The position numbers and the translations under genes are program-made. Of a stretch of DNA of 14,072 bases, positions 1-14,072 are shown in pieces. This DNA is from Myxococcota bacterium (GTDB lineage: Bacteria > Myxococcota_A > UBA796 > CAJQPC01), in NCBI GenBank assembly GCA_036012755.1, contig DASCPX010000001.1, positions 1 to 14,072 of the forward strand, in the 5' to 3' direction. Below the pieces are notes generated by a model that had not been told where the DNA came from, made no database searches, and saw nothing but the letters and a program-made list of their open reading frames with translations. Position 1 is the stretch's first letter. The number at the start of each line of letters is the position of its first letter.

Positions 1-184
1 CCATGTTTCTCCGAGACCGACTTGCCGCCTCAACTCCGCCTGGCTGAAACACCATGTTTCTCCGAGACCGACTTGCCACCTCAACTCCGCCTGGCTGAAA
101 CACCATGTTTCTCCGAGACCGACTTGCCGCCTCAACTCCGCCTGGCTGAAACACCATGTTTCTCCGCGACCGACTTGCCGCCTC
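1..184. repeat. 51-bp direct tandem repeat, about 3.6 copies, truncated by the window start
   Basis: Unit CCATGTTTCTCCGAGACCGACTTGCCGCCTCAACTCCGCCTGGCTGAAACA at 1-51, 52-102 and 103-153, with a partial copy at 154-184. There is one substitution in copy 2 and one in copy 4, and no spacers. The junctions form the inverted repeat GAAACA-CCA-TGTTTC. Confidence 0.97.
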
Positions 185-294
185 GCCAGGCAGGCCACCA
201 ACCTCCAGCAAGCACCAGCCGCTGATGCCCTCGGAAAACCCGCTCAGCGGACCCGAGTGAAGACCCCGCCGAGCGACTCGTGCTCGAGTTCGAC

Positions 295-915
295 TCAGCC
301 CCGCGGGGTGCGCGCGATGTGGGCCCGGGCCTGGATCGACAGCCAGGCGTCGACCGCCGTGCGCTCCTGGGGATCCAGGCGCGCAATGCGGCGCTTGATG
401 CGCTGGACTCGCTGGGTGACCGCGGCCCGGCTCACGCCGTGGCGGCGGCTGTACTCGACCTTGCTCTCGGCTTCGAGCAGCGCCAGGATGAAGCCCTGGT
501 CGATCTCGGAGAGCGCCACGCCGGGGATGACCTCGACCAGATCCTCGGGGTGGCGGACCGTGCCGAACCAGCCCAGGGCGGCCTCGGCGCCCTCTCCCTT
601 GAGGACGTCGCGCTCGCGGATCGCCCGCTGAGCCAGGCGCCAGACGCAGCGGTCGGTGATCGTGCGAACGAAGGCGAAGAGCTCGTTGATGGTCTCGCCT
701 CGGAAGCTGGCCAGCGCGCCGGTGATGAGGCGCTTGAGCACCTCTGCCACGGCCTCCTCGACCTGCGCTTCGCTGAGCAGATCGCGGTAGCAGCTGCGCC
801 ACACCAGGCGCGCGCGCCGGTCGATGTAGCCGAGCAGCCTCTCGTAGAAGGCCCGGGTCTCGGGCGTGTGCCGGTCTGCCAGCAGCAGGCGCAGTGAACG
901 TCGGAAGTCCGTCAT
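295..915 (-). CDS. Divergent ECF-type (sigma-70 family) RNA polymerase sigma factor, 206 aa
   Basis: Region-2-like segment 'SEAQVEEAVAEVLKRL...SFRGE...LFAFVRTITDRCVW'. Region-4 HTH-like segment 'LSEIDQ...SKVEYSRRHGVSRAAVTQRVQRIKRRI'. Size is typical of ECFs. The ATG follows the upstream peptide's stop after a 3-nt gap. Confidence 0.72.
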   Translation of the reverse strand: MTDFRRSLRLLLADRHTPETRAFYERLLGYIDRRARLVWRSCYRDLLSEAQVEEAVAEVLKRLITGALASFRGETINELFAFVRTITDRCVWRLAQRAIRERDVLKGEGAEAALGWFGTVRHPEDLVEVIPGVALSEIDQGFILALLEAESKVEYSRRHGVSRAAVTQRVQRIKRRIARLDPQERTAVDAWLSIQARAHIARTPRG

Positions 916-918
916 CCC

Positions 919-1068
919 CTAGATCCCGTTGCTGAAGCCGTCTCCGGCTGTCGGGGTCCAGATGTTCGTCGCGGGAGGCGGTGGGGGGGCGACCGACTGG
1001 TCAGCAGCCGGCAGCTGGACCGAGAGCGAGGTGATCAACCAGACATAGAAGGCGAGGATCGTGCTCAT
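919..1068 (-). CDS. 49-aa small protein, probably exported or membrane-anchored: MSTILAFYVWLITSLSVQLPAADQSVAPPPPPATNIWTPTAGDGFSNGI
   Basis: The ATG at 1068 overlaps the TPR gene stop (ATGA), with GGAG 9 nt upstream. It fills the gap between the TPR and sigma genes almost exactly. It has an N-terminal hydrophobic stretch, a Pro-rich linker and a short polar tail. It is the 3' end of track ORF 919..1698. Confidence 0.8.
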   Translation of the reverse strand: MSTILAFYVWLITSLSVQLPAADQSVAPPPPPATNIWTPTAGDGFSNGI

Positions 1069-1673
1069 TTTTCGGTCTCCGTGCGAAGAAGCGCCAGGTC
1101 GGCGTCGCTGGCGATCGCCGAGTCCAGCTCGGCGACCATGGATGCGGGGTAGCTCCGACGGATCTGGACGAGCAGCGCGGCGGCCTCGTCGATCTCGCGG
1201 AGGCGGATCAGGGTGCAGAGGATGTTCTGCAGGTTCTCTCCGGAGCGCTCGCGCTCGAGGGCTCGGGAGCAGTAGTCCAGGGCCTGCTCGTAGCGGCCCA
1301 TGGCGAAGGCGAGCCAGGCGCGGTGGCGCTCGACGCTGGCGAGGTCGGCGTTGAGGTCGGGACCGTCGTCCTGCCAGGCGGCGACCTCCTGCTCGGCGGT
1401 CATGCGAGCGGCCTCGGCGTAGTTCTTCACCTTCGGGTGGGCGGCGACGATGTGCAGCGCAGAGAACATCGTGACCCTTCGGATGCGGCCCTCGGCCTGA
1501 AGTCGCCTGACGAGGGCACGAAGCTCCTCTGGCTCCCAGTCGGGCTGGCGGAGGGCGTCCCGGAACACGGCCAGCGCTTCTGCCTCGTGGCCCGAGATCC
1601 GATGGACCGGAGTCTGGTAGGACTCCTCGTCGACGGTCTCGAAGATCCGATCGAGGATTGCGCGGTAGGACAT
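1065..1673 (-). CDS. Tetratricopeptide-repeat (TPR) protein, 202 aa
   Basis: TPR-like 'RHRAWLAFAMGRYEQALDYCSRALERERSGENLQNILCTLIRLREIDEAAALL'. The C-terminal 'DADLALLR' resembles the DPDL..LR cap seen after TPR arrays. GGGAG lies just before the ATG. No signal peptide is visible. Confidence 0.82.
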   Translation of the reverse strand: MSYRAILDRIFETVDEESYQTPVHRISGHEAEALAVFRDALRQPDWEPEELRALVRRLQAEGRIRRVTMFSALHIVAAHPKVKNYAEAARMTAEQEVAAWQDDGPDLNADLASVERHRAWLAFAMGRYEQALDYCSRALERERSGENLQNILCTLIRLREIDEAAALLVQIRRSYPASMVAELDSAIASDADLALLRTETEK

Positions 1674-1881
1674 CGTTCTCCCAGTGGTGGACAGCCACCG
1701 TGTGAGCGGTGGGGCCCAGCCGCCTGAAGGTTAACGATCAAACTGCAGAGTCGCTGTCAATGGGGGATTCCTGACGGGGATCTGGCACGGGACGTGCGTC
1801 GGGCGCCTTTGGCGGCCCTGAATGTGCCCTGTAAGAAGCGGCCACGGCACCCGTTCCCACCGCCACGCTTCGAGGTCCCCC

Positions 1882-2781
1882 TTGGTCGCTCATCTCGACA
1901 AGATCGCCAACTCCGCCTGGTTCACCAACTTCGTCACGGTGGTCATCCTGGCCGCTGGCCTCGTCGTCGGTCTCGAGACCTATCCGGCCATCTCGGAGGC
2001 CTACCACACGCCCCTGCACTGGGCGAACTGGACCATCCTCGGCATCTTCATCGTCGAGATCATCGTGAAGATGGGGGCCCACGGACGGCACTGGTACCGC
2101 TACTTCAAGGACCCGTGGAACATCTTCGACTTCGCCATCGTCGTGGCCTGCCTGATGCCCTTCGGCAGCGGCTTCGTCGCCGTGCTGCGCCTGCTCCGGG
2201 TGCTGCGTGTGCTGAAACTGGTGACGGCGCTGCCGAAGCTGCAGATCCTCGTAGGCGCGCTGTTGAAGTCGATCCCCTCGATGCTCTACGTGAGCGTGCT
2301 GCTCGGCCTGTTGTTCTACCTCTACGCGGTCACGGCGACCTTCTTCTTCAGCGAGAACGACCCCATCCACTTCGAGACGCTGCAGCTGTCGATGCTCTCG
2401 CTGTTCCGAACGGTCACGCTCGAGGACTGGACCGACCTGATGTACATCAACATGTACGGCTGCGACAACTACGGCTACGGCGGCAACGAGGCCCTCTGCA
2501 CCCAGCCCAACGCCATGCCGATCTTCTCGGCGGGCTTCTTCGTCAGCTTCGTGCTCTCCGGAACGATGATCATCTTGAACCTGTTCATCGGCGTCATCAT
2601 GAACGGCATGGAGGAGGCCCAGGCAGAGGCAGCGGAGATGGCAAAGGCCAGCCGCAAGGGCCGGGAGTCCCTCGCCGAGGAGCTCGCTGCGGTCAGCGGT
2701 CAGCTGGCGGAGATGCAGAAGGTCCTGGCTGCGATCGAGATCCGCGCGAGGAACGAGGCAGGGGCCCGCGCGGCAAAGTAG
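1882..2781 (+). CDS. Prokaryotic voltage-gated ion channel (BacNav/NaChBac family, Ion_trans)
   Basis: Six hydrophobic segments; 'YFKDPWNIFDF' before S3; S4 'LRLLRVLRVLKLV'; filter 'TVTLEDWTD' (TLEDWTD at 2416-2436); S6 'ILNLFIGVIMNGM'; C-terminal coiled-coil-like tail. The start is placed at TTG 1882 after GAGG (1872-1875), whereas the track ORF begins at 1822. Confidence 0.93.
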   Translation: MVAHLDKIANSAWFTNFVTVVILAAGLVVGLETYPAISEAYHTPLHWANWTILGIFIVEIIVKMGAHGRHWYRYFKDPWNIFDFAIVVACLMPFGSGFVAVLRLLRVLRVLKLVTALPKLQILVGALLKSIPSMLYVSVLLGLLFYLYAVTATFFFSENDPIHFETLQLSMLSLFRTVTLEDWTDLMYINMYGCDNYGYGGNEALCTQPNAMPIFSAGFFVSFVLSGTMIILNLFIGVIMNGMEEAQAEAAEMAKASRKGRESLAEELAAVSGQLAEMQKVLAAIEIRARNEAGARAAK

Positions 2782-2896
2782 GACTCAGATGCGGCGGACC
2801 AGCTCCGTGTAGAGGTCCTGCCACAGGGGGTAGATCTCGTCCATCTGGGGCCCTAACCTCGGAACCGACTGCGCCACGCGGAGGTCAAGCTGACCC

Positions 2897-3595
2897 ATGC
2901 TGTTGTTGTTGAAGCTGGCGAGCGCCGAGACCATCGAAGAGGCCTTCCCCCCACCGAGCGGCGAGCGCGTCGCGACCGAGGGCTACGGCGCCTCGCTCAA
3001 GACCCTGGAGCTGCGGGCGGCGGAGGTGCCCGTGCGCACCCACGACGGGCGCGAGGTGAACCACCAGGCTCGGGTGGTGGAGCTGCCGCTGGTCCCAGGT
3101 GACCTCCAGCAGTGCGCGGACTCGCTCATCCGCCTGCGGGCCACCTGGGAGCTGGAGCAAGAGCAGGAGGTGGTCTTCCACGCCACCAGCGGCGATGCGT
3201 TGCCGTGGGCGAGGTATCGGGACGGCGAGACGCCCTATGTCGTGGATGACCGCATCGCTTGGAAGACAGGAGGGACAGGACAGTTCGAGGACTACCTGGC
3301 GAAGGTCTTCATGTGGGCCGGGACGCACTCGCTGGAGCACCTGGACACGGTGCCGACGACCGAGGTGGTTCCTGGCTCCATGCTGATCCAGGGTGGCTTC
3401 CCGGGACACGCGGTGGTGCTCCTGGACGTCGCGGTGTCGGGGGACAAGACCTACGTGCTGGTCGGCGAGGGCTACATGCCGGCCCAGGACTTCCACGTGG
3501 AGCTGGGACCCCACTCGGGCTGGTGGCTCTGGGAGGAGGGCCTGCCGAGCTACCACTGGCCGATGAAAGCAGCCAACCTGCGAGCGTTCGACTGA
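2897..3595 (+). CDS. DUF4846-like exported protein
   Basis: Motifs 'DLQQCADSLIRLRA', 'PGHAVVLLDVA' and 'GYMPAQDFHV' match my recollection of DUF4846. Short hydrophobic N-terminus ending in ASA. Confidence 0.78.
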   Translation: MLLLLKLASAETIEEAFPPPSGERVATEGYGASLKTLELRAAEVPVRTHDGREVNHQARVVELPLVPGDLQQCADSLIRLRATWELEQEQEVVFHATSGDALPWARYRDGETPYVVDDRIAWKTGGTGQFEDYLAKVFMWAGTHSLEHLDTVPTTEVVPGSMLIQGGFPGHAVVLLDVAVSGDKTYVLVGEGYMPAQDFHVELGPHSGWWLWEEGLPSYHWPMKAANLRAFD

Positions 3596-3616
3596 GGGAC
3601 GAGTTCTAATGGCACC

Positions 3617-4546
3617 ATGGTCCGCTCGCTGCCTTTGCTCCTGCTCATGACCCTCTCTTGCGGAGGCGCGGTCGATCCCCCCAGGAGCGGGACGCTCCAC
3701 GAGGACCAGACCTACGAGCACGGCGGGACCACCCGGACCTACCACTTCTACGAGACCGCCGGTGACGGCGCTCGACCCCTGGTCTTGCTGCTGCATGGCG
3801 GCGGGGGCGTGATCGACAACCACATCGGCCTCGGCGGCGTGAGCTGGCCTCACCAGGTCTGGCTGGACATCGCGGACGAGGAAGGGCTCCACGTGCTCGT
3901 CCCCCAGGGCATCAGCCGCCACTGGAACGACTGCCGGGCGGAGTGCACCCGCTGCGGAGACGAGGACGACGTCGGCTTCCTCGTCGGGCTCCTCGACGAC
4001 GTGGCGACGCAGTACCCGGTCGACCTCGAGCGCGTCTACGTCGTCGGCGAGTCCAACGGTGGCTTCATGACCCAGCGCCTCGCCCAGGAGGTCCCGGAGC
4101 GCTTCGCGGCCATGGGCGTCGTCATCGCGCTCCAGCCCGCCGAGTCCGACTGCACCGCGCTCGATGTCCCCATGCCCCTGATGTACCAGGTGGGCACCGC
4201 TGATGCCGCGATCCTCTACGAGGGCGGCGCCAGCGACTCGAACACCAGCGTGCTGTCGGCGGCCGAGACGGTCGCCTACTGGCGAGACCTCAACGGCTGC
4301 GAGGCGACCCCGACGACCACCTCCTTGGACGATCTCGACCCCGATGACAGCTCGACTGTCAGCCGGGACGACTACTCCTGCGACCAGGGCGCGCTGTCCG
4401 TCCTCACGATGGACGGCGCGGGCCACGTCCCGCCGAGCATCGAGGTCGAGGTCTCGGCGTTCTGGGAGGGCATCGCCGGCATCCAGAACCACGACATCGA
4501 GGGGGCCAGGGTGTTCTGGACGTTCTTCTCGGGTCGGTCACGATGA
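3617..4546 (+). CDS. Alpha/beta-hydrolase lipoprotein, LpqC / PHB-depolymerase-family esterase
   Basis: Lipobox 'TLSC'; 'PLVLLLHGGGG'; 'DDVGF...VDLERVYVVGESNGGFM' (GxSxG nucleophile); 'GTAD' and 'GAGH' as candidate triad Asp and His. Confidence 0.9.
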   Translation: MVRSLPLLLLMTLSCGGAVDPPRSGTLHEDQTYEHGGTTRTYHFYETAGDGARPLVLLLHGGGGVIDNHIGLGGVSWPHQVWLDIADEEGLHVLVPQGISRHWNDCRAECTRCGDEDDVGFLVGLLDDVATQYPVDLERVYVVGESNGGFMTQRLAQEVPERFAAMGVVIALQPAESDCTALDVPMPLMYQVGTADAAILYEGGASDSNTSVLSAAETVAYWRDLNGCEATPTTTSLDDLDPDDSSTVSRDDYSCDQGALSVLTMDGAGHVPPSIEVEVSAFWEGIAGIQNHDIEGARVFWTFFSGRSR

Positions 4547-4640
4547 CCATCTGACCGCCCGATTCGGCCACTCTGGCCTTTCCCCGCAGGTCATGATGGG
4601 GTAGACAGCCCCCAGGGCACCGTGCATCCTGGCGAGCCGT

Positions 4641-6653
4641 ATGCTTGCGCTCCTCCTCGTGACCGCCTGCTCGAAAGAGCAGAACTTCTACACGACCTCC
4701 CCTGATCCGGTCGGCGGCTCGGACTCTGCTACCCCCGACGGCACCGACGCAGACGGCGACGGCTACGACGAGGACATCGACTGCGACGACAGCGACGCGG
4801 ACGTCCACCCCGACGCGACAGAGGTCTGCAACGGCATCGACGACGACTGTGACGAGCTCGTCGACGACGACGACGACAGCGTCGACCTGGCCACGACGAC
4901 CTACTGGTACGAGGACTTCGACCTCGACGGCTACGGCGATCCGGACACCATCGCCGAGTCCTGCAGCGCCCCCAGCGTGGACCACATCCTCGTCGGCGGC
5001 GACTGCGACGACAGCGACGGGATGATCAACCCCGACGCGACAGAGGTCTGCAACGAGGTGGACGACGACTGCGACCTGCTCATCGACGACGACGACGATG
5101 ACGTCGATCCGGCGACCCAGATCCCATGGTTCGCCGACCTCGACGGCGACGGCTACGGCGACCCCAACGACTTCGAGTTCGCCTGCGTCCAGATCGATGG
5201 CCGCGTCGAAGACGACAACGACTGCGACGACGGCTCCAAGGGCGTGAACCCGGGGCAGAGAGAGGAGTGCAACGACCTCGACGACGACTGCGACGGGTAC
5301 ATCGACGACGACGACGCCAGCTTGGACCTCGAGACCGCCAACTGGTACTGGGAAGACGCCGACGGCGACGGCTACGGCAACGAGGACAAATCCCAGCAGG
5401 CCTGCGACAAGCCCGACGGGTGGAAGTCCAACAAGAAGGACTGCGACGACACGGACGCGGACATCAACCCGGACGCCGCCGAGATCTGCGACGGCGAGGA
5501 CAACGACTGCGACTCGGCCACGCCGGAAGACGGCACGGCCAGCGTCGGCAGCGCCTCCTACGGCACCATCCAGGCAGCCGTGGACGCTGCCTCTTCGGGA
5601 GACACCGTCACCATCTGCGACGGCACCTTCTACGAGAACATCGACACCAGCGTGTCGCTGACCCTGGAGTCCCTCAACGGCTCCGGCAGCGTGACCCTCG
5701 ACGGACGCAGCAAGGGCGCGGTCGTCACCGCCGGCGCTCAGTTGACCGTCAGCGGCTTCACGATCCAGAACGGCAGCGGCCCGCTAGGCGGCGGCATCGA
5801 CGGCTGGACCAACGACGCGGGCACCCTGACCATCGAAGACTGCACGTTCACCGACAACAGCGCCACCTACGGGGGCGGCGTGCTCGGTCCACCCAGCTAC
5901 GATCTCGACGTCAGCGACAGCGAGTTCAAGAACGGGGACGTCACGAACTCCGGAGGCGGCGTCTACATCACCTCCGGCAGCCTCTCGAACGTCACCGTCC
6001 ACGACAACGAGGCGGACTACGGCGGCGGTGTCTTCGTCGACTACGGCGGCAGCGCGACCTTCGACTCCTCCACCGACATCTACGACAACGACGCTACCTA
6101 CGGCGGCGGCGTCTTCCTCTACGGCGCCACCCTCGACGGCGACGACGCGACGATCCGCGACAACGACGCTGACGACGGCGGCGGCGTGTTCATGACGGAC
6201 TCGAACAACTCCCTGTCCAACGCGACGGTCTCCGGGAACACAGCCGACTACGGCGCGGGCCTCTTGTCCGAGAACTACAGCGGCCAGTTCGTCGACACCG
6301 TGGACTTCAGCAGCAACGTCGGCAGCTACGGCGGCGCGGTGTACGTCTACGGCGGCTCGATGGAGATCGAAAACAGCACGCTCGACGCGAACACGGCCAG
6401 CTATGGCGGCGGCATCCTGCTCATCCTCGACGGCACCCTGACGGTGGACGCCTGCACCCTGACGAACAACGGCGCGACCGGGGGCGGAGACGGCGGCGGA
6501 CTGCTGATCTACAAGGGCGACCTGTGGTCCTACTCCACCGACTGGGGCAGCGGGACCAGCGACAACACCCCAGAGGACATCTACTCCTGGGTGACCGACA
6601 GCGCGAGCAGCGGCACGAGCACCGCCTTTTCCTGCGACGAGAGCGGATGCTGA
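4641..6653 (+). CDS. Surface lipoprotein with four MopE-related (putative metal-binding) repeats and a C-terminal right-handed beta-helix domain, 670 aa
   Basis: Lipobox-like 'VTAC'. Four repeats of D.DGDGY...DCDD....NP...E.C...D.DCD. These are followed by 'YGTIQAAVDAASSGDTVTICDGTFYENI' and repeated 'N.A.YGGG' beta-helix motifs. Confidence 0.88.
   Translation: MLALLLVTACSKEQNFYTTSPDPVGGSDSATPDGTDADGDGYDEDIDCDDSDADVHPDATEVCNGIDDDCDELVDDDDDSVDLATTTYWYEDFDLDGYGDPDTIAESCSAPSVDHILVGGDCDDSDGMINPDATEVCNEVDDDCDLLIDDDDDDVDPATQIPWFADLDGDGYGDPNDFEFACVQIDGRVEDDNDCDDGSKGVNPGQREECNDLDDDCDGYIDDDDASLDLETANWYWEDADGDGYGNEDKSQQACDKPDGWKSNKKDCDDTDADINPDAAEICDGEDNDCDSATPEDGTASVGSASYGTIQAAVDAASSGDTVTICDGTFYENIDTSVSLTLESLNGSGSVTLDGRSKGAVVTAGAQLTVSGFTIQNGSGPLGGGIDGWTNDAGTLTIEDCTFTDNSATYGGGVLGPPSYDLDVSDSEFKNGDVTNSGGGVYITSGSLSNVTVHDNEADYGGGVFVDYGGSATFDSSTDIYDNDATYGGGVFLYGATLDGDDATIRDNDADDGGGVFMTDSNNSLSNATVSGNTADYGAGLLSENYSGQFVDTVDFSSNVGSYGGAVYVYGGSMEIENSTLDANTASYGGGILLILDGTLTVDACTLTNNGATGGGDGGGLLIYKGDLWSYSTDWGSGTSDNTPEDIYSWVTDSASSGTSTAFSCDESGC
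4746..5513 (+). repeat. Four intragenic Asp/Cys-rich MopE-like coding repeats (boundaries approximate)
   Basis: Recurring DCDD / NPDATEVCN / DDDCD blocks. The DNA 'cccgacgcgacagaggtctgcaacg' occurs twice, near 4809 and 5032. Confidence 0.85.
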
Positions 6654-6757
6654 CATCCGTGTCATGATCCGGGGACGCGGGGATCACGACAGCGCGGCCC
6701 CATGGGGATCCACAGCGATGGCACGGCTCCTGCACAGCGCCACCGCAGGAGAACCCC

Positions 6758-7777
6758 ATGCTCATCTTCGGACTCATCGCTTGCGGCGGCCCGGTCGCGT
6801 TCCAGGACGACATCGACGACCGCTTGGACATCTTCGGGCCCCGGAACGACGATCTGTCCACGCCATACGTCGAGACCGCCGCCTTCGAGATGAGCATCGT
6901 GCCTCGGCGGGACAAGGACATCACGGGCTGGACGCTGTCCTCCTCCGATCCCACCGTGCTCGAGCTCGGTGAGCTCGAAGCGGACGACTCCGGTCTCTCC
7001 GCCCAGGCGCACGCGCTCTCCACGGGGGAGGTCGAGCTCCAGGCCTTCGACGAGACCGGCAAGCTCCGCGCAACCGAGCTCGTCGAGGTCCGCAGACCCA
7101 CCCGACTCGAGGTCGAGCACGTCGCCCCGCTGCTGCTCGGAGACCCCGACGTCCTCGGCGAGGAGGTCCCGCAGCTGCTCGTCGGCGGCAGCGCCACGAT
7201 GCTGGTCGAGTACTTCGACGAGGACGGCCAGCTGCACGGCCAGGCCGAGGGACTCACCCTCGACGCCCACCCGATGCTGAACCCGACGACGCTGCAGCGG
7301 GACTACGAGGAGAACGTCGACTTCATCCAGATCAGCCCGGAGCTCGCCGGCGACTTCAGCTTCACCGTGAGCATGGGCGACGTGGAGAGGGAGATCGAGG
7401 TCGTCGGCGTGACCATCGACGCGCTGGACCACCTCGCCATCGCGCGCACCGACGAGGAAGAGGACGGCGGCAACCAGGTGGTAGTGGTCCTTGGCGAGGA
7501 CAGCACCGATCGGCCAATCCTCGGGGTCGAGCCCGGCTGGAGGATCAACGGCCAGCTGCGAGAGGAGACAGGAGACGTCTGGGTCTACCAGCTCGAAAAG
7601 GGGGTAGAGAGCCAGGCCATCGCCTCCTTCGACAGACACCAGGTCGGCTTCGACTTCCAGAGCAGCGACGGCGCCGTCCACAGCACGAACACCCCGGGCT
7701 GCAGCGCCACCGGCCTGGGGGCCTCGGCCCTGCTGGCCATGGCCGGCCTCGTCGTCATTCGAAGGCGCTCCACATGA
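6758..7777 (+). CDS. MYXO-CTERM-sorted surface protein (paralog 1), probably Ig-like beta-sandwich domains
   Basis: AGGAG RBS; N-terminus 'MLIFGLIAC'; C-terminus 'PGCSATGLGASALLAMAGLVVIRRRST' (GC motif, TM helix, Arg cluster); 'WTLSSSDPTVL' is Big_2-like. Confidence 0.82.
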   Translation: MLIFGLIACGGPVAFQDDIDDRLDIFGPRNDDLSTPYVETAAFEMSIVPRRDKDITGWTLSSSDPTVLELGELEADDSGLSAQAHALSTGEVELQAFDETGKLRATELVEVRRPTRLEVEHVAPLLLGDPDVLGEEVPQLLVGGSATMLVEYFDEDGQLHGQAEGLTLDAHPMLNPTTLQRDYEENVDFIQISPELAGDFSFTVSMGDVEREIEVVGVTIDALDHLAIARTDEEEDGGNQVVVVLGEDSTDRPILGVEPGWRINGQLREETGDVWVYQLEKGVESQAIASFDRHQVGFDFQSSDGAVHSTNTPGCSATGLGASALLAMAGLVVIRRRST

Positions 7778-8799
7778 TCGTCTTCGGCTTCACCGCCTGC
7801 CTGTCCGGTCACGTCTCCTTCGAAGACGACCTCGACGTCCGAGTCGACCTCGCGGCGACCGAGAGCGACCGGCTCCACACCCCCTACGTTCGAGGTGCGG
7901 CCTTCGACATCACAGCTCGGCGCGACGGCGTCGTGGACCTCTCGGACTGGCAGCTGGTCAGCTCGAACGAGCTGGTCCTCGACGTCGTCGACCTCCGAGC
8001 AGGCGAGGACTCCCTGACCGCCAGCGTAGAGGCCATCGGCGAGGGCGAGGCCCGCATCGAGCTCCTCGGCGCCAGCGGCGACCTCGTCGATGCCCGCGTC
8101 CTCGAGGTGGCCTTCCCCGAGTCCGTCTCGCTGCGTCACGAGAACGCCCTGCGGCTCGGCGTCGAGAGCGACGACGAGTTCGCCCTCGCCTGGGACGGCC
8201 AGGGCCGCTACCTCGCGACCTACATCGACGACCAGGGCCGCGAGCTCTCGGGCCACGGCGTGCTCTCGGCCGGGGATCTCGCCCCACTGCTCGAGGTGGA
8301 CGTCGACGACTTCGCCTGGGGCGAGGACCGGGACTGGGTGACCCTGACCAGCGGCTGGTACGAAGGCGCGGCCGATGTGGAGCTCTACGTCGACGGCGAG
8401 CTCGCCGACGAGCTCTACGTCGAAGTGGTCGGGCCCGCCGACGTCGAGGAGATCGAGGTCATCACCTCCGACGAGGGCGCCGCGACGGAAGGCCAGGATC
8501 TGCTCGCCTGGACCCTCGGCTTCACGATGGACGGGCGCGAGGTCCACGGTGTCGACGCGACCTGGGACGCTGGTGGCCTGGCGCTCCGGGTGGGTGACAC
8601 GGTCGAGTACGTCTTCGACCCCACCGAGCCGACGGACCTCGTCGCCCACTTCGGAGAGAGCGAGGACCGGGCGCTCATCCACGGCAGCGAGTTCCCGGGG
8701 GCGCGGCCTCCCGGCGGCTGCTCGGCGACGGGCCTCGGCGCCACTGGAGCCCTGGCCTTTTTGGGTCTGCTGGTCCTGAGGCGACAGCGACGGGGTTAG
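7774..8799 (+). CDS. MYXO-CTERM-sorted surface protein (paralog 2)
   Basis: ATGA overlap with paralog 1; N-terminus 'MIVFGFTAC'; C-terminus 'GGCSATGLGATGALAFLGLLVLRRQRRG'. Colinear similarity to paralog 1 (L.TPYV..AAF, W.L.SS...VL, Y.D..G). Confidence 0.82.
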   Translation: MIVFGFTACLSGHVSFEDDLDVRVDLAATESDRLHTPYVRGAAFDITARRDGVVDLSDWQLVSSNELVLDVVDLRAGEDSLTASVEAIGEGEARIELLGASGDLVDARVLEVAFPESVSLRHENALRLGVESDDEFALAWDGQGRYLATYIDDQGRELSGHGVLSAGDLAPLLEVDVDDFAWGEDRDWVTLTSGWYEGAADVELYVDGELADELYVEVVGPADVEEIEVITSDEGAATEGQDLLAWTLGFTMDGREVHGVDATWDAGGLALRVGDTVEYVFDPTEPTDLVAHFGESEDRALIHGSEFPGARPPGGCSATGLGATGALAFLGLLVLRRQRRG

Positions 8800-8808
8800 G
8801 CTCGGGCC

Positions 8809-9870
8809 GTGGCCGTCCCGACCGAACTGATCCGAGACCTGCCGCTGTTTCGCATGGTTCCAGCCCACCACCTGGACCAGGCGGCGGAGCTGGCGATGAT
8901 CTCCGTCGAGGTCGGCGAGGGTGAGCTGCTCCTGGCGGAGGGAGAGCGGGACGACTCGTTGATGGTCGTGCTGCAAGGCGAGCTGGAGATCATCAAGGGG
9001 GATCCCTCGGTGCGCATCGCCCGGGTGGGCCGCGGCGAGATCCTCGGCGACATGGCCCTGTTCGGGGGCAGCGGTGTCCGCACGGCGACGGTGCGGACCC
9101 TGTGTCCCAGCTCCTTCGTGCTGATGGAGCAGACCGGCCTCGCGATCCTGCGCGCGCACGGCAACCAGCTCGTGACGGTGCTGGAGTCGACGGCGCTCCG
9201 GACCCTGGGTCGCCGCCTGCGAGACATGAACGACCGCATCTCGGAGATGGCGGTGGGGACCGAGCTGGCGCCAGAGGAACCCTCTGGGCTCCTCGCCCGC
9301 CTGCGCTCCCTGTTCGCGTCGGCCGACCAGGGACCCAAGGGACCTGCCCCCAACCCGGCGTCCGTGCTCGCGAACAGCTCCAGCTTCGACATCCTGCCTG
9401 CCGACAGCCGCGACGCCCTCGCCGACGAGCTGGAGGTCCTCTCGATCCCGGCTGGCACGGTCCTGCTGCAAGAGGGCGAAGTGGGCGACGACGCCTACGT
9501 GGTCGCAGCCGGGCGCGTCGACGTCTACCGAGCGACGCGCACCTTCGAGAACAAGAAGCTGGCCGAGTTCGGGCCGGGCTCTGTGTTCGGGCTGGTCTCG
9601 CTGGTCCACGGCAACGTGCGCTCCGCGACCTGCTATGCGCCCGTCGGGAGCTGGCTGCTCAAGCTGCCAGGCAGCGTCTACCGCGAGCTCGAGGGCACGA
9701 ACTCGATCGAGGCCCAGGCCATGCGAGGCGTCGTCTACCAGTCCCTGGCCCGTCAGCTCGCCGGCGCCAACGAACACGTCGCCCTGCTGATCGCGGCGCT
9801 CGCCCGGGACCCGACCATCACCGAGCGCGAGCGTGCCGCCTACCGGGCCCTGGTCGTCGACTCGATCTGA
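8809..9870 (+). CDS. Protein with two tandem cyclic-nucleotide-binding (CAP_ED) domains and no visible effector domain
   Basis: Domain 1 'LLAEGERDDSLMVVLQGELEI...GEILGDMALFGGSGVRTATV'. Domain 2 'LLQEGEVGDDAYVVAAGRVDV...GSVFGLVSLVHGNVRSATC'. No C-terminal HTH. GTG start. Confidence 0.88.
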   Translation: MAVPTELIRDLPLFRMVPAHHLDQAAELAMISVEVGEGELLLAEGERDDSLMVVLQGELEIIKGDPSVRIARVGRGEILGDMALFGGSGVRTATVRTLCPSSFVLMEQTGLAILRAHGNQLVTVLESTALRTLGRRLRDMNDRISEMAVGTELAPEEPSGLLARLRSLFASADQGPKGPAPNPASVLANSSSFDILPADSRDALADELEVLSIPAGTVLLQEGEVGDDAYVVAAGRVDVYRATRTFENKKLAEFGPGSVFGLVSLVHGNVRSATCYAPVGSWLLKLPGSVYRELEGTNSIEAQAMRGVVYQSLARQLAGANEHVALLIAALARDPTITERERAAYRALVVDSI

Positions 9871-9924
9871 GCGCACCGGCGACCGCGGCGCGATAGCTTC
9901 GTCGCCCCCTTTGCAAGGGATCAC

Positions 9925-11241
9925 ATGCTCCTGCTCTACGCCATGAACGCACACGCCGTGAACCTGTCCATCCCCCACGAGCAGTACCAGCTCGACAACG
10001 GCCTCAACGTCGTCCTCGTCGAGGATCACAGCCTCCCGCAGGTGGTGATCAACCTCTGGTACGGCGTCGGGAGCAAGGACGAGGCGTCCGGTCGCACGGG
10101 CTTCGCCCACCTCTTCGAGCACCTCATGTTCATGGGCACCACCCGCCTGCCGGACAGCGGCTTCGACGACCTCATGGAGGGGCAGGGCGGCTGGAACAAC
10201 GCCTGGACCAGCGAAGACGCCACCGACTACTACGAGGTCGGCCCCTCCAGCCTCGTCGAGCTCTTCCTCTGGATGGAGGCGGACCGCATGGATGGCCTCG
10301 CCGGCGCGATGACGCAGGACAAGCTCGACCTCCAGCGCGAGGTCGTGCGCAACGAGCGGCGCCAGTCCTACGAGAACGCACCCTACGGCCAGGTCGGGCT
10401 GGACATGCCGGCGGCGCTCTACCCAGAGGGGCACCCCTACGCCCACACGGTCATCGGCAGCCACGAAGACCTCGAGGCCGCCACCCTGGCCGACGTCGTC
10501 GGCTTCTTCGACACCTGGTACGTGCCAAACAACGCCTCCCTGGTCGTCGCGGGGGACATCGACGTCGACAAGACGAAGGCCGACATCGAGCGCCTCTTCG
10601 GCGGCCTCGAGATGGGCCCCCTGCCAGCGCTCGAGATGGTCGCCACTCCCCTGAAGCCCGTGCAGCCCCTGGTGGAGATCACCGACGAGAGCATCGAGAC
10701 GCCCCTGACGATGACCGTCTGGCACAGCGCGGCCGCCCTCCAGCCAGGAGACGCCGAGCTGGACGTCGTGAGCGCCATCCTCTCCAGTGGGCGCAGCTCG
10801 CGCCTGTATCGACGACTGGTCGACACGGGCGTGGCGCTGGAGGTCCACGCCTGGCAATACAGCCAGCTCCTGTCTTCGATCTTCGGCATCGAGGCCAAGC
10901 CGGCGGAGGGCCACACCGTCGAGGAGATCGAGGCCATCGTCTACGAAGAGCTCGCCCGGCTCGCAGAAAAGGGGCCGACCGATGCGGAGCTCGAGCGTGT
11001 CGTCAACGCCTACGAGATGCGCTTCATCCGGAACCTGGAGTCGCTCCAGGCTCGGGCCAGCGCGCTGAACCGCTACCACTACCTCGTGGGCGAGCCCGAC
11101 TACCTCGAGAAAGACCTCGCCCGCTACAGGGCCGTGGACGCCGAAGCGGTCCAGGGAGCCGCCCGTCAGCTCACGGCTGAGCGGGCAGCGACCTTCCATG
11201 TCTTCCCTCCGGCTCCCGAGCCCACGGAGGAGACCGACTGA
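9925..11241 (+). CDS. M16B family zinc metallopeptidase, catalytic subunit
   Basis: 'LDNGLNVVL', 'WYGVGSKDE..GRTGFAHLFEHLMFMGT' (inverted zinc motif HxxEH), 'NAWTS.DATDY', 'VVRNERRQ', 'HPYAHTVIGS' and 'WYVPNNASLVVAGD'. Confidence 0.96.
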   Translation: MLLLYAMNAHAVNLSIPHEQYQLDNGLNVVLVEDHSLPQVVINLWYGVGSKDEASGRTGFAHLFEHLMFMGTTRLPDSGFDDLMEGQGGWNNAWTSEDATDYYEVGPSSLVELFLWMEADRMDGLAGAMTQDKLDLQREVVRNERRQSYENAPYGQVGLDMPAALYPEGHPYAHTVIGSHEDLEAATLADVVGFFDTWYVPNNASLVVAGDIDVDKTKADIERLFGGLEMGPLPALEMVATPLKPVQPLVEITDESIETPLTMTVWHSAAALQPGDAELDVVSAILSSGRSSRLYRRLVDTGVALEVHAWQYSQLLSSIFGIEAKPAEGHTVEEIEAIVYEELARLAEKGPTDAELERVVNAYEMRFIRNLESLQARASALNRYHYLVGEPDYLEKDLARYRAVDAEAVQGAARQLTAERAATFHVFPPAPEPTEETD

Positions 11242-12641
11242 TGCTGCTGTACGCCACCCTCCTCGCCTGCCCCAAGAAGAACCCCGAGAGTGCGGCCATG
11301 CCGGAGAGCTCCCTGGCCGAGCGGCCCGAGATCCCCGCTCCCCTCAGCTTCACCCCACCGACCGCCGAGCTCCTGAAGCTCGAGTCCGGAGCGGAGCTGT
11401 GGGTCATCCACCAACCCGGACTCCCGCTCGTCGCCATCGATCTCGTCGTCCACGGCGGCAAGGCCGCGGATGGCATCGCCGGCGAAGCGCGCCTCTGCGA
11501 CAAGATGATGCTCCGCGGGGCCGGTGAACGGGACGCGACCGCCTTCGCAGAGGTCCTCGACCAGCAGGCCATCGACCTGTCCACCGCCACCTACGACACC
11601 GCCTCCATGATCTCGCTGGCGACCCACACCGGGCGCCTCTCCACGGGCCTGGAGCTGATGGCAGACGCCGTCGTGCATCCCACCCTGGAACCCGAGGAGT
11701 TCGACAAGCTGCTCGCCCAGACCAAGGCATCGCTGGACGAGAACCTCGCGCGGCCTCCGGTCGTCGCCTCCTGGGTCGCGAGCCGCCTCTACTGGGGCGA
11801 GGGTCACCCCCTCTCGAACCCGGCCATCGGCACGAAGGCATCCTTGGAAGAGGTGGGCGTCGAGGCCTGCACCGCCTCTCTCGAGACACGCTTCCGGCCG
11901 GATCGGGCGACCTTCGTCGTCGCCGGCGATCTGTCCGCAGAGGACGCGAAGGTGGCCCTGGATGCAGCCTTCGCGGACTGGACCGGCCCTGCCGAGGAGC
12001 CTCTGGATCTGCCCTCGGCCGAGCCGAGCCCGGGCTTCTACCTGGTCGACGACCCGGGCTCCACCCAGTCGAGCCTGCGGGTGGTCATGCCCGGGTGGCA
12101 CGCCGTGCACCCCGAGCGCACCAGCGCCCAGCTGGGTGTCATCGTGCTCGGCGGCACCTTCACCTCTCGCCTGAACCGGCTGCTGCGCGAGGAGAAGGGC
12201 TACACCTACGGCGCCAGGGCGAACCTCTCCTACGGCGCCGGCTACGGCCAGGTCGTGGCCTCCACCAGCGTGCGCTCAGACGTCACTGGAGCGGGTCTGC
12301 GAGACCTGCTCGACCAGCTGCAGCTCGTCACAGAGGGCATCGACACCGCGGAGCTGGACAAGGCCAAGGGCGCCCGGCGCACGACGCTCACCTCGAGGGT
12401 GGAGACCCGCTCGAGCACGGCGGGCACCTGGGCCTGGTACATGGCCGACGGCCAGCCTTCCAGCCAGATGGCAGAAGACCTCGCCGCGATCGACGCCGCC
12501 ACACTGGAGACCGTGAACGCAGCCTTGGCCCAGCTCGATCTGTCCCAAGCGGTGGTCGTGGTGGTAGGCGACATCAGCCAGATCGAAGCCCAGCTCGCGG
12601 AGCACGTGCCAGAGGCCACCTGGACGACGGTCGAGAAGTAG
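11241..12641 (+). CDS. M16B family peptidase, non-catalytic partner subunit (probable lipoprotein)
   Basis: TGATG overlap with the upstream gene. HxxEH is replaced by 'RLCDK'. The substrate-binding R/Y motif 'SRLNRLLREEKGYTYGA' is retained. N-terminus 'MLLYATLLAC'. Confidence 0.92.
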   Translation: MLLYATLLACPKKNPESAAMPESSLAERPEIPAPLSFTPPTAELLKLESGAELWVIHQPGLPLVAIDLVVHGGKAADGIAGEARLCDKMMLRGAGERDATAFAEVLDQQAIDLSTATYDTASMISLATHTGRLSTGLELMADAVVHPTLEPEEFDKLLAQTKASLDENLARPPVVASWVASRLYWGEGHPLSNPAIGTKASLEEVGVEACTASLETRFRPDRATFVVAGDLSAEDAKVALDAAFADWTGPAEEPLDLPSAEPSPGFYLVDDPGSTQSSLRVVMPGWHAVHPERTSAQLGVIVLGGTFTSRLNRLLREEKGYTYGARANLSYGAGYGQVVASTSVRSDVTGAGLRDLLDQLQLVTEGIDTAELDKAKGARRTTLTSRVETRSSTAGTWAWYMADGQPSSQMAEDLAAIDAATLETVNAALAQLDLSQAVVVVVGDISQIEAQLAEHVPEATWTTVEK

Positions 12642-12654
12642 GCTCACGATGCGC

Positions 12655-13482
12655 TCATAGTGGAGACCTGATCTGCATCCGCCCGGGATCCCGGAGGTGG
12701 ATGTAGCGCATGGTCGTGCGCAGGTCTGCGTGGCCGAGCAACACCTGTATGACGGCGAGGTCCGAGCCTTGTTCGAGCAGATGCGTGGCGAAGGCGTGTC
12801 GCAGCGAGTGCGGCGTCACTTTGCCCTCTACGCCCCCGGCCGCGGCTGCCCTGCCCACGACCTTCTGGATGGACCGAGCCGTGAGCGCCCCGCCTGCATT
12901 TGACGGGATCACCGGCGACTCCGGGTGTCTTCCGTGGGTTTGCTCCCGGAGCGTGTCCGTCAGCATCGGACTGAGCAGTGCGACCCTCTCTTTGCGTCCT
13001 TTGCCTCTCCGGATCCGCAGCTGGAGCCGACTCAGGTCGACATCGCCGACCCGCAGCCCGACGAGCTCACTCACGCGCATGCCACTTGCGTAGAGCAGCA
13101 GGATCACGAGCCGGTGCTTGTCGTTGGTGGTGACCGCAGCCATCGCGAGCACCTCCTCACGGGTAGGGACTCGCGGAAGAAACACCCCCCGCTTCGGCCG
13201 CGGCACCACGAACATCTCCGCCGAGCGCCCGTAGAGCTCGTGGAAGAGCAGCTTCAGCGCGGAGACCACCTGGTTGACGTAGGCCCGGCTCCTGTCCGCC
13301 TCCAGCAGTCCGAGCAGGTAGCTCCGCACCTGCCCGTCAGTGGCGTCACGCGGCACCACCGGATCAATGTGGGCCACGAACCCGCGAAGGCAAGACAGGT
13401 ACGCCTTGATGGTGGTCCGCGCATACCCACGCAGCACCATCTCCTGCTGGTACCGCTCATACAGATCCTGCGAAAGCCCCAC
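12655..13482 (-). CDS. Tyrosine recombinase, integron-integrase-like (N-terminal SAM-like domain, C-terminal SPL), apparently without the IntI-specific insertion; 275 aa
   Basis: Intact catalytic set: R (GMRVSE), K (GKGRKER), HxxR (HSLRH), H (LLGH) and Y (TTMRYIH). N-terminus 'LRGYARTTIKAY...NQVVSALKLLF', then 'LPRVPTREEV', ending 'IRSPL'. The start is placed at GTG 13482 with GGAGG 5 nt upstream, whereas the track starts at 13557. Confidence 0.92.
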   Translation of the reverse strand: MGLSQDLYERYQQEMVLRGYARTTIKAYLSCLRGFVAHIDPVVPRDATDGQVRSYLLGLLEADRSRAYVNQVVSALKLLFHELYGRSAEMFVVPRPKRGVFLPRVPTREEVLAMAAVTTNDKHRLVILLLYASGMRVSELVGLRVGDVDLSRLQLRIRRGKGRKERVALLSPMLTDTLREQTHGRHPESPVIPSNAGGALTARSIQKVVGRAAAAGGVEGKVTPHSLRHAFATHLLEQGSDLAVIQVLLGHADLRTTMRYIHLRDPGRMQIRSPL

Positions 13483-13535
13483 CTCGCCCTCCTCTGCCTC
13501 CGTATCCGCGAGGGGGACCAGAAACTGTCCGGGGG

Positions 13536-13564
13536 ATCGCAGAAGTAGCCCTCTCAAGCATCAA
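13536..13564 (-). promoter_or_regulatory. Possible sigma-70 promoter for the recombinase
   Basis: Minus strand TTGATG-N17-TGCGAT, 53 nt upstream of the GTG. The -10 match is poor. Confidence 0.25.
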
Positions 13565-13566
13565 TG

Positions 13567-13597
13567 CGACACCGGTGTCGGTAGTCAGGCGTTAGGC
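13567..13597 (+). other. Candidate attI-like recombination site: perfect 14-bp palindrome plus GTTRRRY core
   Basis: CGACACCGGTGTCG (13567-13580) is followed 10 nt later by GTTAGGC (13591-13597). It lies about 110 bp upstream of the recombinase start, on the strand where integron attI cores lie. Confidence 0.55.
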
Positions 13598-13622
13598 GAC
13601 ATTGACGAGTGCTTTTAGCCCT

Positions 13623-14072
13623 TTAGTCGTATCGCTCCCGAAGTTGGGACCCTTCGAGTAGTGCCATGAGTTCTGCGCTGCCCTTGAGTGCGTCCGGGGA
13701 GACCATCGTTTCATTGAACTGGCGCCAGATGAGCGCTTCGACGACGGTCGCTTGGAACTTCCACCCTCGGGTGACACCGTACGCTCGGACGCGGGGATCG
13801 TCTGCGTCCTTCCAACGCTCGAACAACCGGGAGAGTGCCTTGTCTCTCTCGTGTTTCTGGAGCCAGTGTGACGTTGCTTCCGGCCCCGCCTCACGGAGGA
13901 CCAGATAGGCGGCGAGCTTGATGAGGGCGTCGCCGAGCTGAGCCTCGGACCAGAGCGCCTGGTCGTCAGACGCGATTTCGATGGCCGCCAGTGCCTCTGC
14001 AGCGGCGTTGCCGTCCGCCTCCGAGATGCGCTGACCTTCCCCACGGCCTGTCAGTACGTGCCCGTCGGGTAG
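13623..14072 (-). CDS. 5'-truncated gene: dsRBD-like segment followed by a Mini-III/RNase III-like domain
   Basis: My manual translation shows the frame of track ORF 13623..13826 open to the window end (149 codons): LPDGHVLTGRGEGQRISEADGNAAAEALAAI (dsRBD beta3-alpha2-like), EAQLGDALIKL (13914-13946; cf. LEFLGD/LAYLGDA) and KFQATVVEALIW (13725-13760; cf. ADxxEALIG/TAFEAL). Confidence 0.65.
   Translation of the reverse strand, partial: LPDGHVLTGRGEGQRISEADGNAAAEALAAIEIASDDQALWSEAQLGDALIKLAAYLVLREAGPEATSHWLQKHERDKALSRLFERWKDADDPRVRAYGVTRGWKFQATVVEALIWRQFNETMVSPDALKGSAELMALLEGSQLRERYD

Follow-up and report, generated by a model that had tools for sequence, protein, structure and literature searches.

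A 49-amino-acid (aa) open reading frame (ORF) encoded on the minus strand of a 14,072-nucleotide (nt) stretch of DNA from a Myxococcota bacterium (contig DASCPX010000001.1, positions 1 to 14,072; hereafter, the window) genuinely belongs to a family of small proteins not described before, and constitutes the middle gene of a three-gene sigma factor module. Between positions 295 and 1673, the minus strand of the window holds three tightly packed genes, encoding a tetratricopeptide repeat (TPR) protein, the small protein and a sigma-like protein of the extracytoplasmic function (ECF) type. The explanation that best accounts for the data, to which a probability of roughly 0.4 was assigned as a whole, is that of a three-gene operon in which translation of an exported mini-protein would drive the synthesis of the sigma factor, and in which the C-terminal tail of this mini-protein would dock, most likely, on the TPR protein. 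The small ORF had been singled out in an earlier note on this DNA as an easily missed, propeptide-like gene with its own ribosome-binding site (RBS), translationally coupled and built in three parts. The features of the cassette are the following (residues are numbered within the small protein):

1065..1673, minus strand: upstream gene, encoding a 202-aa cytoplasmic, all-helical TPR protein (Pfam, AlphaFold2 (AF2) model, Foldseek)
1077..1080, minus strand: Shine-Dalgarno (SD) sequence GGAG of the small ORF, located 8 nt upstream of its ATG and in the final codons of the TPR gene
919..1068, minus strand: small ORF of 49 aa, the middle gene of the cassette, with its TAG stop at 919-921; sequence MSTILAFYVWLITSLSVQLPAADQSVAPPPPPATNIWTPTAGDGFSNGI
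1012..1062, minus strand: hydrophobic N-terminal segment, residues 3-19, TILAFYVWLITSLSVQL, a probable export signal or membrane anchor
973..987, minus strand: PPPPP stretch, residues 28-32, in the variable linker; PPP is enriched in the family
922..936, minus strand: conserved C-terminal pentapeptide FSNGI; family pattern [I/L][S/Y/F][N/V]G[F/I/L/V/Y]-COOH
295..915, minus strand: downstream gene, encoding a 206-aa divergent ECF-type sigma-like protein, without an SD of its own (profile-profile comparison, fold)

The openness of the frame means little on its own, since the frame of the small ORF runs on through the TPR gene for 259 codons without a stop, and a stop-free frame as long as the small ORF has a chance of about 1 in 4 according to our estimate from the base composition of the window, which corresponds to G+C-rich DNA. 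Openings of this kind are common in DNA of such composition, and would be expected if the small ORF were not a gene but had arisen by chance in a G+C-rich spacer between genes. This explanation, whose probability we consider vanishingly small, was contradicted by the comparative data. Of 41 genomes from the same order, 29 yielded the sigma-like gene, and in all 20 loci fetched from these relatives a TPR gene lay upstream and the gap was filled by an ORF of 49-97 aa running from start to stop. A scan of one genome per species yielded 69 loci, all from metagenome-assembled genomes, mostly labelled as Myxococcota or Deltaproteobacteria, some of the labels being implausible. The sigma-like gene was present in 68 of these loci and the upstream TPR gene also in 64 of those, and the small ORF filled the TPR-sigma gap in 64 out of the 64 public loci holding an upstream TPR gene. 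Three of the four sigma-bearing loci without a TPR gene were cut by the contig end (L075, L076 and L087), and the fourth (L086) simply had none. The small gene is strongly conserved between the TPR and sigma genes in marine Myxococcota.

Once duplicates had been removed, the set comprised 66 distinct sequences, 48-97 aa in length with a median of 63, and all counts out of 66 given below refer to these sequences or to their loci. When the family profile was searched against 1.84 billion proteins, 103 representatives (50% identity) were recovered at E <= 0.001, all of them 48-80 aa long; nearly all matched the profile end to end, and 86 were not identical to any of the 66. A word-index protein search with the family alignment returned four proteins, both of those named by their source being a "hypothetical protein", and none of the four had a match in Pfam, nor did the small-protein family as a whole. 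The best score in the ESM Atlas was 0.80 for the small protein, which was uninformative. Among the full-text literature matches listed, there was no description of ISNGF, ISNGI or ISNGL tails in bacteria of this kind, and no description of the cassette was found by literature searches on ECF sigma factors, TPR proteins, small proteins and Myxococcota or Myxococcales.

Selection acts on the small ORF at the protein level, as follows from the synonymous variation in the tail codons, the hydrophobic last residue and the frame-specific G+C content at third codon positions (GC3). The Gly of the tail was encoded by GGG (39 sequences), GGC (15), GGA (7) or GGT (5), and its Ser by TCG, TCC and AGC, involving a switch between TCN and AGC; in the last codon the first base varied and the encoded residue was always hydrophobic. 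The GC3 of the small ORF was 0.857 in the window, and the family median was 0.869, on a level with the flanking genes (TPR genes 0.891, sigma genes 0.907). These features, together with a conserved SD and with matching ORF ends in 64/64 and 20/20 loci even though the middle is unalignable, argue against a chance frame, and the small ORF is almost certainly a real, translated gene.

Alignment of the TPR-sigma intergenic ORFs of the relatives revealed a conserved terminus of the xSNGx type and a variable linker, as the earlier note had predicted: the ORF is conserved, the identity at each position of the tail is 62-100%, and the linker is unalignable. The middle of the small protein is a hypervariable acidic linker, the mean column identity of the whole alignment was 16%, and the Gly of the tail was the only invariant column. 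The composition of the tail in the 66 sequences, counted back from the C-terminus, was as follows:

Position -5: I 60, L 5, F 1
Position -4: S 45, Y 15, F 4, D 1, N 1
Position -3: N 58, V 7, D 1
Position -2: G 66
Position -1: F 41, I 13, L 7, V 3, Y 2

The proposed three-part build stood as regards the hydrophobic N-terminus, the spacer and the presence of a tail, yet only the last five residues (FSNGI) are kept and the preceding NIWTPTAGDG is not. The tail had been described as an information-rich segment of 15 residues, and its length had to be reduced to 5 because positions -6 to -12 are not conserved. Within these limits, the tail is nearly invariant across the whole order and beyond. At the other end of the protein, the family consensus is M-[T/S/N]-x-[L/I/F]-x-A-[L/F]-[L/F]-x-W-L-L-S-x-x-G (MTxLxAxLxWLLSxxG), and the conserved N-terminal residues include W10 and G16. 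Stretches of PPP were present in 82 of 152 family members, versus 3.5% of rough 63-aa control windows of this genome, usually in the context A-PPP(P)-[E/A/S] and 14-45 residues before the C-terminus; the poly-proline could be a rigid spacer or a translation brake dependent on elongation factor P. A role of the tail as a general sorting signal was ruled out, as its pattern ends only 2 of the 26,780 high-GC3 open frames of the genome, one of them being the small ORF of the window.

The cassette shows the layout of translational coupling that had been proposed for it. The ATG of the small ORF (1066-1068) overlaps the TGA of the TPR gene (1065-1067) as ATGA, and the ATG of the 206-aa gene (913-915) begins 3 nt past the stop of the small ORF. 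The RBS attributed to the 49-aa ORF was also borne out by the GGAG at 1077-1080, and an SD-like 4-mer was found 5-20 nt upstream of the start in 64/66 small ORFs, 45/66 TPR genes and 4/66 sigma genes. The ATGA overlap of the small ORF with the TPR stop occurred in 45/66 loci, and the sigma start lay within -4 to +5 nt of the small-ORF stop in 63/66. Since the sigma gene almost never has an SD of its own, it probably needs reinitiation after the small ORF, and its translation is very probably coupled to that of the latter. Given this dependence, the small ORF would be translated wherever the sigma factor is made.

The same arrangement would be expected if the small ORF served mainly as a translational device (a leader or a coupling ORF, perhaps an arrest peptide that senses force), with a C-terminus that would modulate termination and reinitiation on the sigma gene and a product that would have no job afterwards. 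In favor of this possibility, the sigma gene lacks an SD in 62/66 loci and starts next to the small-ORF stop in the above mentioned 63/66, and the conserved residues are exactly the last five, located inside the ribosome at termination. In addition, the N-terminal export-type segment and the minimum length of 48 aa fit force-sensing leaders, and PPP stretches, enriched in the family, slow ribosomes. SecM, MifM and VemP are monitoring or arrest leader peptides that share with the small ORF its shortness, an N-terminal export or insertion signal (a putative one in the small ORF), a conserved C-terminus and a position directly before the controlled gene. Known arrest motifs, however, are longer or end Pro-rich (RAPP or RAGP), whereas the tail of the cassette is free of Pro in all 66 sequences, consists of five conserved residues ending at the stop, and has downstream of it a gene for a sigma factor and not for a Sec or YidC component. 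The mechanism in the cassette would likely be reinitiation rather than SD unmasking, which also sets it apart from these leaders. The RAPP-type arrest peptides ApdA and ApcA carry Pro-rich arrest motifs, according to the available excerpt of PMC12992588. The paired cysteines of the linker and the conserved N-terminus (W10, G16) point to a function of the finished protein, and a conserved peptide is needless for simple coupling; a mainly translational role was considered decidedly improbable.

The downstream protein appears to be a very divergent protein of the sigma-70 family, of ECF type. Its matches to curated models remained below their cut-offs, both for TIGR02937 (E 0.017; 14.8 bits vs. 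a cut-off of 42.9) and for a KorA-type helix-turn-helix (HTH; 2.6e-4), and among the 66 relatives Sigma70_r2 matched 17 sequences and r4_2 matched 16, all of them weakly. When a profile of the 66 relatives was compared with one built from 11 canonical ECF sigmas encoded in this genome (hhalign), the match reached a probability of 94.5% (E 8.3e-8) over 135 columns, spanning regions 2 and 4. The AF2 model (predicted local distance difference test, pLDDT, 84.8) has the sigma-2 fold, with VIA Z values of 9-10 to sigma region-2 domains and of 8.4-9.3 to region 2 of SigW, sigma-E, RpoE and SigK, although helical folds can give non-specific Z values below about 13; the alignments had root-mean-square deviations of 2.4-3.0 Å over 84-91 residues, and the top rows were almost all sigma factors. 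Foldseek searches with this model gave E values of only 0.04 or weaker, and structures 5uxx and 4cxf, linked to the small anti-sigma factors NepR and CnrY, were among the matches of the model. The protein ends after the HTH, at 206 aa, with no fused TPR module.

This architecture can be compared with that of the ECF42 sigmas, which, according to the available excerpt of PMC8999054, need a fused C-terminal TPR extension of ~200 residues predicted to bind another protein. The cassette resembles them in that an ECF-type sigma would work with a ~200-residue TPR module thought to bind a further protein, as described for ECF42 in the same excerpt (PMC8999054). It differs from them in that the TPR module is a separate upstream gene instead of a C-terminal fusion, in that the sigma factor is far more divergent, falling below Pfam and NCBIfam cut-offs, and in that a candidate ligand gene sits between the TPR and sigma genes.

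The 202-aa protein matched Pfam TPR_2 barely above the cut-off (E 2.4e-6), and its Pfam results comprised only TPR-type and unrelated weak families, with no HTH, phosphatase, or other DNA-binding or enzyme domain. The protein has no N-terminal hydrophobic segment. Its AF2 model, built from the 66 sequences, had a pLDDT of 86.4 and a predicted TM-score of 0.82, with ten repeat helices over residues 28-196. Only TPR proteins were retrieved by Foldseek with this model (E 3e-3 to 2e-2), including peptide-bound structures such as Sec72 with the C-terminal peptide of Ssa1, KLC1-torsinA and NprR-NprX. Searches against solved structures by sequence returned only weak matches to designed TPRs or to HTHs for the TPR and sigma-like proteins, and the ESM Atlas returned, for the TPR protein, its own Myxococcota clusters named "hypothetical protein" and generic TPR clusters. 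The mean column identity of the TPR protein was 64%, making it as conserved as the tail. According to the Pfam register and the model, the invariant residues R116, N147 and N150 occupy positions 5, 2 and 5 of two successive A helices. Such A-helix positions line the concave groove and clamp the C-terminal carboxylate in peptide-binding TPRs, as in the structures of Hop and PEX5. By analogy with these proteins, the tail may bind the TPR protein of the cassette, an assignment that we make tentatively. The conservation of the TPR protein, the peptide-bound structures among its Foldseek matches and the restriction of conserved neighbors to the TPR and sigma genes count in favor of such a receptor, and the data agree with the proposal of the earlier note that the tail is a mature signal or a TPR ligand.

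Residues 1-24 of the TPR protein (window 1602-1673, minus strand) have R9, D15 and Y19 invariant and V14 nearly so, with a modelled pLDDT below 50, and may be a partner-binding segment. No other copy of the TPR protein, fused or free, was found when this genome was searched with the TPR profile. In other genomes, a second and more divergent TPR paralogue was observed directly after the sigma gene, namely in L145 (G220:C230), L146 (G174:C1), G201 and G265; this paralogue keeps the RHRG and EN..GN residues, and no second ISNGF ORF lies behind it. In L146, it is followed by a 448-aa ORF resembling protein kinases.

Of 401 genomes sampled across the phylum, 44 had a match to the TPR profile, most of them belonging to four families of the order of the window, some to two further families of the class, and one to another class. 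In 6 of the 15 genomes of one family (f8; loci including L140, L142, L144, L150 and L154), the middle gene is unrelated in sequence to the small-protein family, and encodes a textbook signal peptide (MR-x-x-L-A-L..., A-x-A) and a different hydrophobic end motif, [I/L]I[L/F]GQ[D/E]R. The middle gene of the genome belonging to the other class (G140; locus L143) encodes a lipoprotein (LLGC) with two SIGNGPL repeats near its end, recalling the ISNG tail. The presence of signal-peptide and lipoprotein middle genes in these distant cassettes suggests that the small protein is exported as well.

Judging from its composition, the small protein itself is probably exported or membrane-anchored. Its hydrophobic segment comprises ~15-18 residues, without a clear cleavage site and without a basic n-region, as the first five residues contain only three K/R in total over the 66 sequences. 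The 15-residue flank after this segment contains 23 K+R vs. 133 D+E, the totals for the whole small-protein family being 204 K+R vs. 483 D+E. The linker contains no cysteine in 20 of the 66 sequences, one in 9, two in 34, three in 2 and four in 1, at a spacing of mostly 8-13 residues, and the corresponding numbers for the 103 representatives, from none to four, were 33, 10, 57, 1 and 2, with 30 K+R vs. 198 D+E. The positive-inside rule and the formation of disulfides in the periplasm are well established, and an extracytoplasmic linker fits both the acidic flank and the even cysteine count.

The location of the linker bears on an alternative raised in the earlier note, a minimal membrane-tethered anti-sigma factor. 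In this case, or in that of a membrane anchor, the N-terminal helix would lie in the membrane and the rest in the cytoplasm, where the tail would hold the TPR protein, and through it the sigma factor, at the membrane. The TPR protein and the tail would then share the cytoplasm, and the tight coupling suggests a stoichiometric complex. Moreover, the small ORF lies directly upstream of an ECF-type sigma gene and in the same operon, and the small anti-sigma factors NepR and CnrY are likewise encoded beside ECF sigma genes, NepR directly upstream. This alternative is weakened, as the earlier note had itself conceded for the N-terminal side, by there being only 1-3 residues that precede the hydrophobic segment and by the acidic flank that follows it, since the excess of D+E opposes a cytoplasmic location under the positive-inside rule. 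Unlike NepR and CnrY, the small protein of the cassette has no conserved cytoplasmic helical segment for sigma binding, only the N-terminus and the five-residue tail being kept, and the linker, being unalignable, cannot be a conserved sigma-binding domain. The paired cysteines and the signal-peptide and lipoprotein versions in distant cassettes point outward as well, and we regard an anti-sigma factor of this kind as a long shot.

An extracytoplasmic tail could also be read on the outer side of the inner membrane. C-termini that are hydrophobic and have a free carboxylate are read by PDZ domains, as in the case of outer-membrane proteins (OMPs; YxF) with DegS and of MucE (WVF) with AlgW, through which AlgU/sigma-E are activated. 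By analogy, the small protein would be anchored in the inner membrane and its hydrophobic C-terminus read by a periplasmic PDZ-type protease or envelope protein encoded elsewhere, triggering the sigma pathway, and the part played by the TPR protein would be confined to the cytoplasm, e.g. as a partner of the sigma factor. Charge and cysteine pattern favor a linker and tail outside the cytoplasm, all tails end in a hydrophobic or aromatic residue whose carboxylate is free, and the proline-rich stretch suits a spacer across the periplasm, as in TonB; the likeness to MucE and the OMPs is that of a small envelope protein whose free hydrophobic C-terminus would serve as the signal to an ECF sigma. 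On the other hand, the x-N-G-hydrophobic motif of the cassette is unlike the aromatic-x-aromatic motifs of the known cases, its invariant Gly at -2 is unusual for PDZ ligands, and its gene lies within the sigma operon. Furthermore, no membrane-spanning anti-sigma of the RseA or MucA type and no protease are encoded in the cassette or in its conserved neighborhood (2.5 kb), leaving no visible route to the cytoplasm. Taking both sides together, we find a signal of the MucE type rather improbable.

A further possibility, and the main reading of the earlier note, is offered by the RNPP (RRNPP) peptide-TPR systems of Firmicutes and phages, which include PlcR-PapR, NprR-NprX, Rap-Phr and AimR-AimP. 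An RNPP-like pro-peptide would be secreted and processed, and its C-terminal peptide would be re-imported and bind the TPR protein controlling the sigma factor, in cell-cell or autocrine signalling. In build, the small protein matches the precursors of PapR, Phr, NprX and AimP, being ~50 aa long, with an N-terminus that would suit export, a middle that varies, a functional or conserved C-terminal end and a position beside the gene of a cytoplasmic TPR protein. The TPR model also resembles NprR (4gpk; TM-score by query 0.57), among many other TPRs, and distant cassettes have export signals on their middle gene. The cassette departs from these systems, however, in several respects. Its tail is nearly invariant over the order and lacks the diversification typical of the peptide "languages" of quorum sensing, and its TPR protein, of 202 aa, is short and has no fused effector such as an HTH or phosphatase domain, the output being a separate ECF-type sigma. 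The gene order is TPR, peptide, sigma, with apparent translational coupling throughout. The host belongs to the Gram-negative Myxococcota, in which a released peptide would have two membranes to cross, and no conserved peptidase or peptide permease was found within 2.5 kb. Finally, no cleavage site is evident before the tail, the residue at -6 being G, R, D, K or P. A pro-peptide of this kind appears fairly unlikely.

Under the explanation that we favor, of an exported mini-protein whose translation drives sigma synthesis and which docks through its tail, ribosomes finishing the small ORF would reinitiate on the sigma gene, making sigma synthesis dependent on translation of the small ORF. The small protein would be exported, or anchored in the inner membrane, through its N-terminal hydrophobic segment, leaving the acidic, proline-rich and often two-cysteine linker and the tail outside the cytoplasm. 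The near-invariant tail I/F-S-N-G-hydrophobic-COOH would act as a docking peptide, whose likeliest receptor would be the co-translated TPR protein, which would capture it either ahead of export or once released. Retention or release of the sigma factor by the TPR protein would then depend on what becomes of the small protein, in the manner of a switch coupled to export or to a ligand. In a more specific and, in our view, unlikely version, the TPR protein would be a "tail reader" that gauges unexported or returned mini-protein through its ISNGF-COOH end, and frees or holds the sigma factor accordingly.

Several observations weigh against this explanation. A tail in the periplasm and a TPR protein in the cytoplasm would not share a compartment, so that docking would need capture before export or re-import. 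The hydrophobic segment departs from the textbook form of both a signal peptide and a transmembrane helix, and the peptide of the window has no cysteine; its tail, FSNGI, is atypical as well, as the only one among the 66 with F at -5. Part of the conservation of the tail is likely to act on RNA, since GGG or GGA is over-used at the tail Gly (46/66, vs. 30% of Gly codons in the neighboring genes), and the tail codons overlap the initiation region of the adjacent sigma gene. In a tree of the 66 cassettes, built from their TPR and sigma proteins joined end to end, the positions of the tail change only 2, 5, 2 and 8 times, too few for a test of co-evolution between tail and TPR protein. Among the distant cassettes, four of those from family f8, without an ISNGF tail, were aligned and showed replacement of S113, R116, R141, R143 and N147 of the TPR protein, with N150 kept, while the TPR protein of G140 has kept R116 and lost N147. 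The co-variation of TPR residues with absence of the tail in f8 is suggestive of the TPR protein as the receptor, but corresponds to a single event on a long branch, confounded by divergence (TPR identity 35-39%).

Upstream of the TPR gene, one further feature was identified:

1709..1735, minus strand: promoter-like element, with GTTAAC (1730-1735), a spacer of 17 nt and CCAC (1709-1712)

A T-rich tract followed by cGT[T/G/A][A/T]AC, N17 and CAC[C/T] was present upstream of the TPR gene in 57/66 loci. The AAC-type -35 resembles that of ECF promoters, and the element may be the promoter of the sigma factor itself, which would fit autoregulation. A scan of the genome with the weight matrix of the element gave 152 hits, compared with 85 above the same score on a reversed-genome control and with similar top scores, and was not specific. 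No sigma-70 promoter or terminator was found in a scan of window 1-1900, and Rfam gave nothing relevant for window 1-2000, its single row being a chance microRNA match (E 0.98). DNA reads from four runs covered only short pieces of the contig, identical to the window, with no strain variation, and no RNA data set containing the sequence was found among the sequencing runs listed.

The only conserved neighbors of the small ORF were the TPR and sigma genes (43-44 of 46 loci), the next commonest neighbor occurring in 14 loci; within 2.5 kb of the cassette loci, no conserved transporter, peptide permease, peptidase, protease or membrane-spanning anti-sigma was detected. In the window, a divergently oriented gene (1822-2781, plus strand) encodes a 319-aa ion-transport protein of the voltage-gated type (Pfam Ion_trans, E 3e-46), which is absent among the conserved neighbors. 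The contig starts with a 51-bp tandem repeat that lies past the end of the sigma-like gene, in window 1-184 (3.6 copies, 97% matches). Further away, a 670-aa ORF (4641-6653, plus strand) encodes many Asp- and Cys-rich repeats (...CDD.D..INP.A.E.CN..DDDCD...), followed by a repetitive region rich in Gly, Asp, Ser and Thr.

Among known systems, the cassette would work most like a peptide-TPR pair of the RNPP type joined to a TPR-needing sigma of the ECF42 type, by analogy with both; it is a member of neither, because its TPR protein has no effector domain or sigma fusion, its tail is not diversified and its sigma factor lies below the cut-offs. With its three small genes, it is a compact system found in nature and kept throughout an order of marine Myxococcota, and the gene between those for the TPR protein and the sigma factor encodes a candidate TPR ligand. 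The small-protein family, whose few database-named members are called "hypothetical protein", is a well-supported addition to the under-annotated small proteins, with an unusually clean conservation pattern in which the ends are kept and the middle is free. The cassette bears on two questions that remain open according to the available excerpt of PMC8999054, namely the control of ECF-type sigmas without a recognisable anti-sigma and the ligands of ECF42-like TPR modules. If the TPR protein did read the tail of the mini-protein as a switch, the cassette would represent a post-translational monitor of export or of the envelope, or else the first RNPP-style peptide-TPR module native to a Gram-negative phylum.

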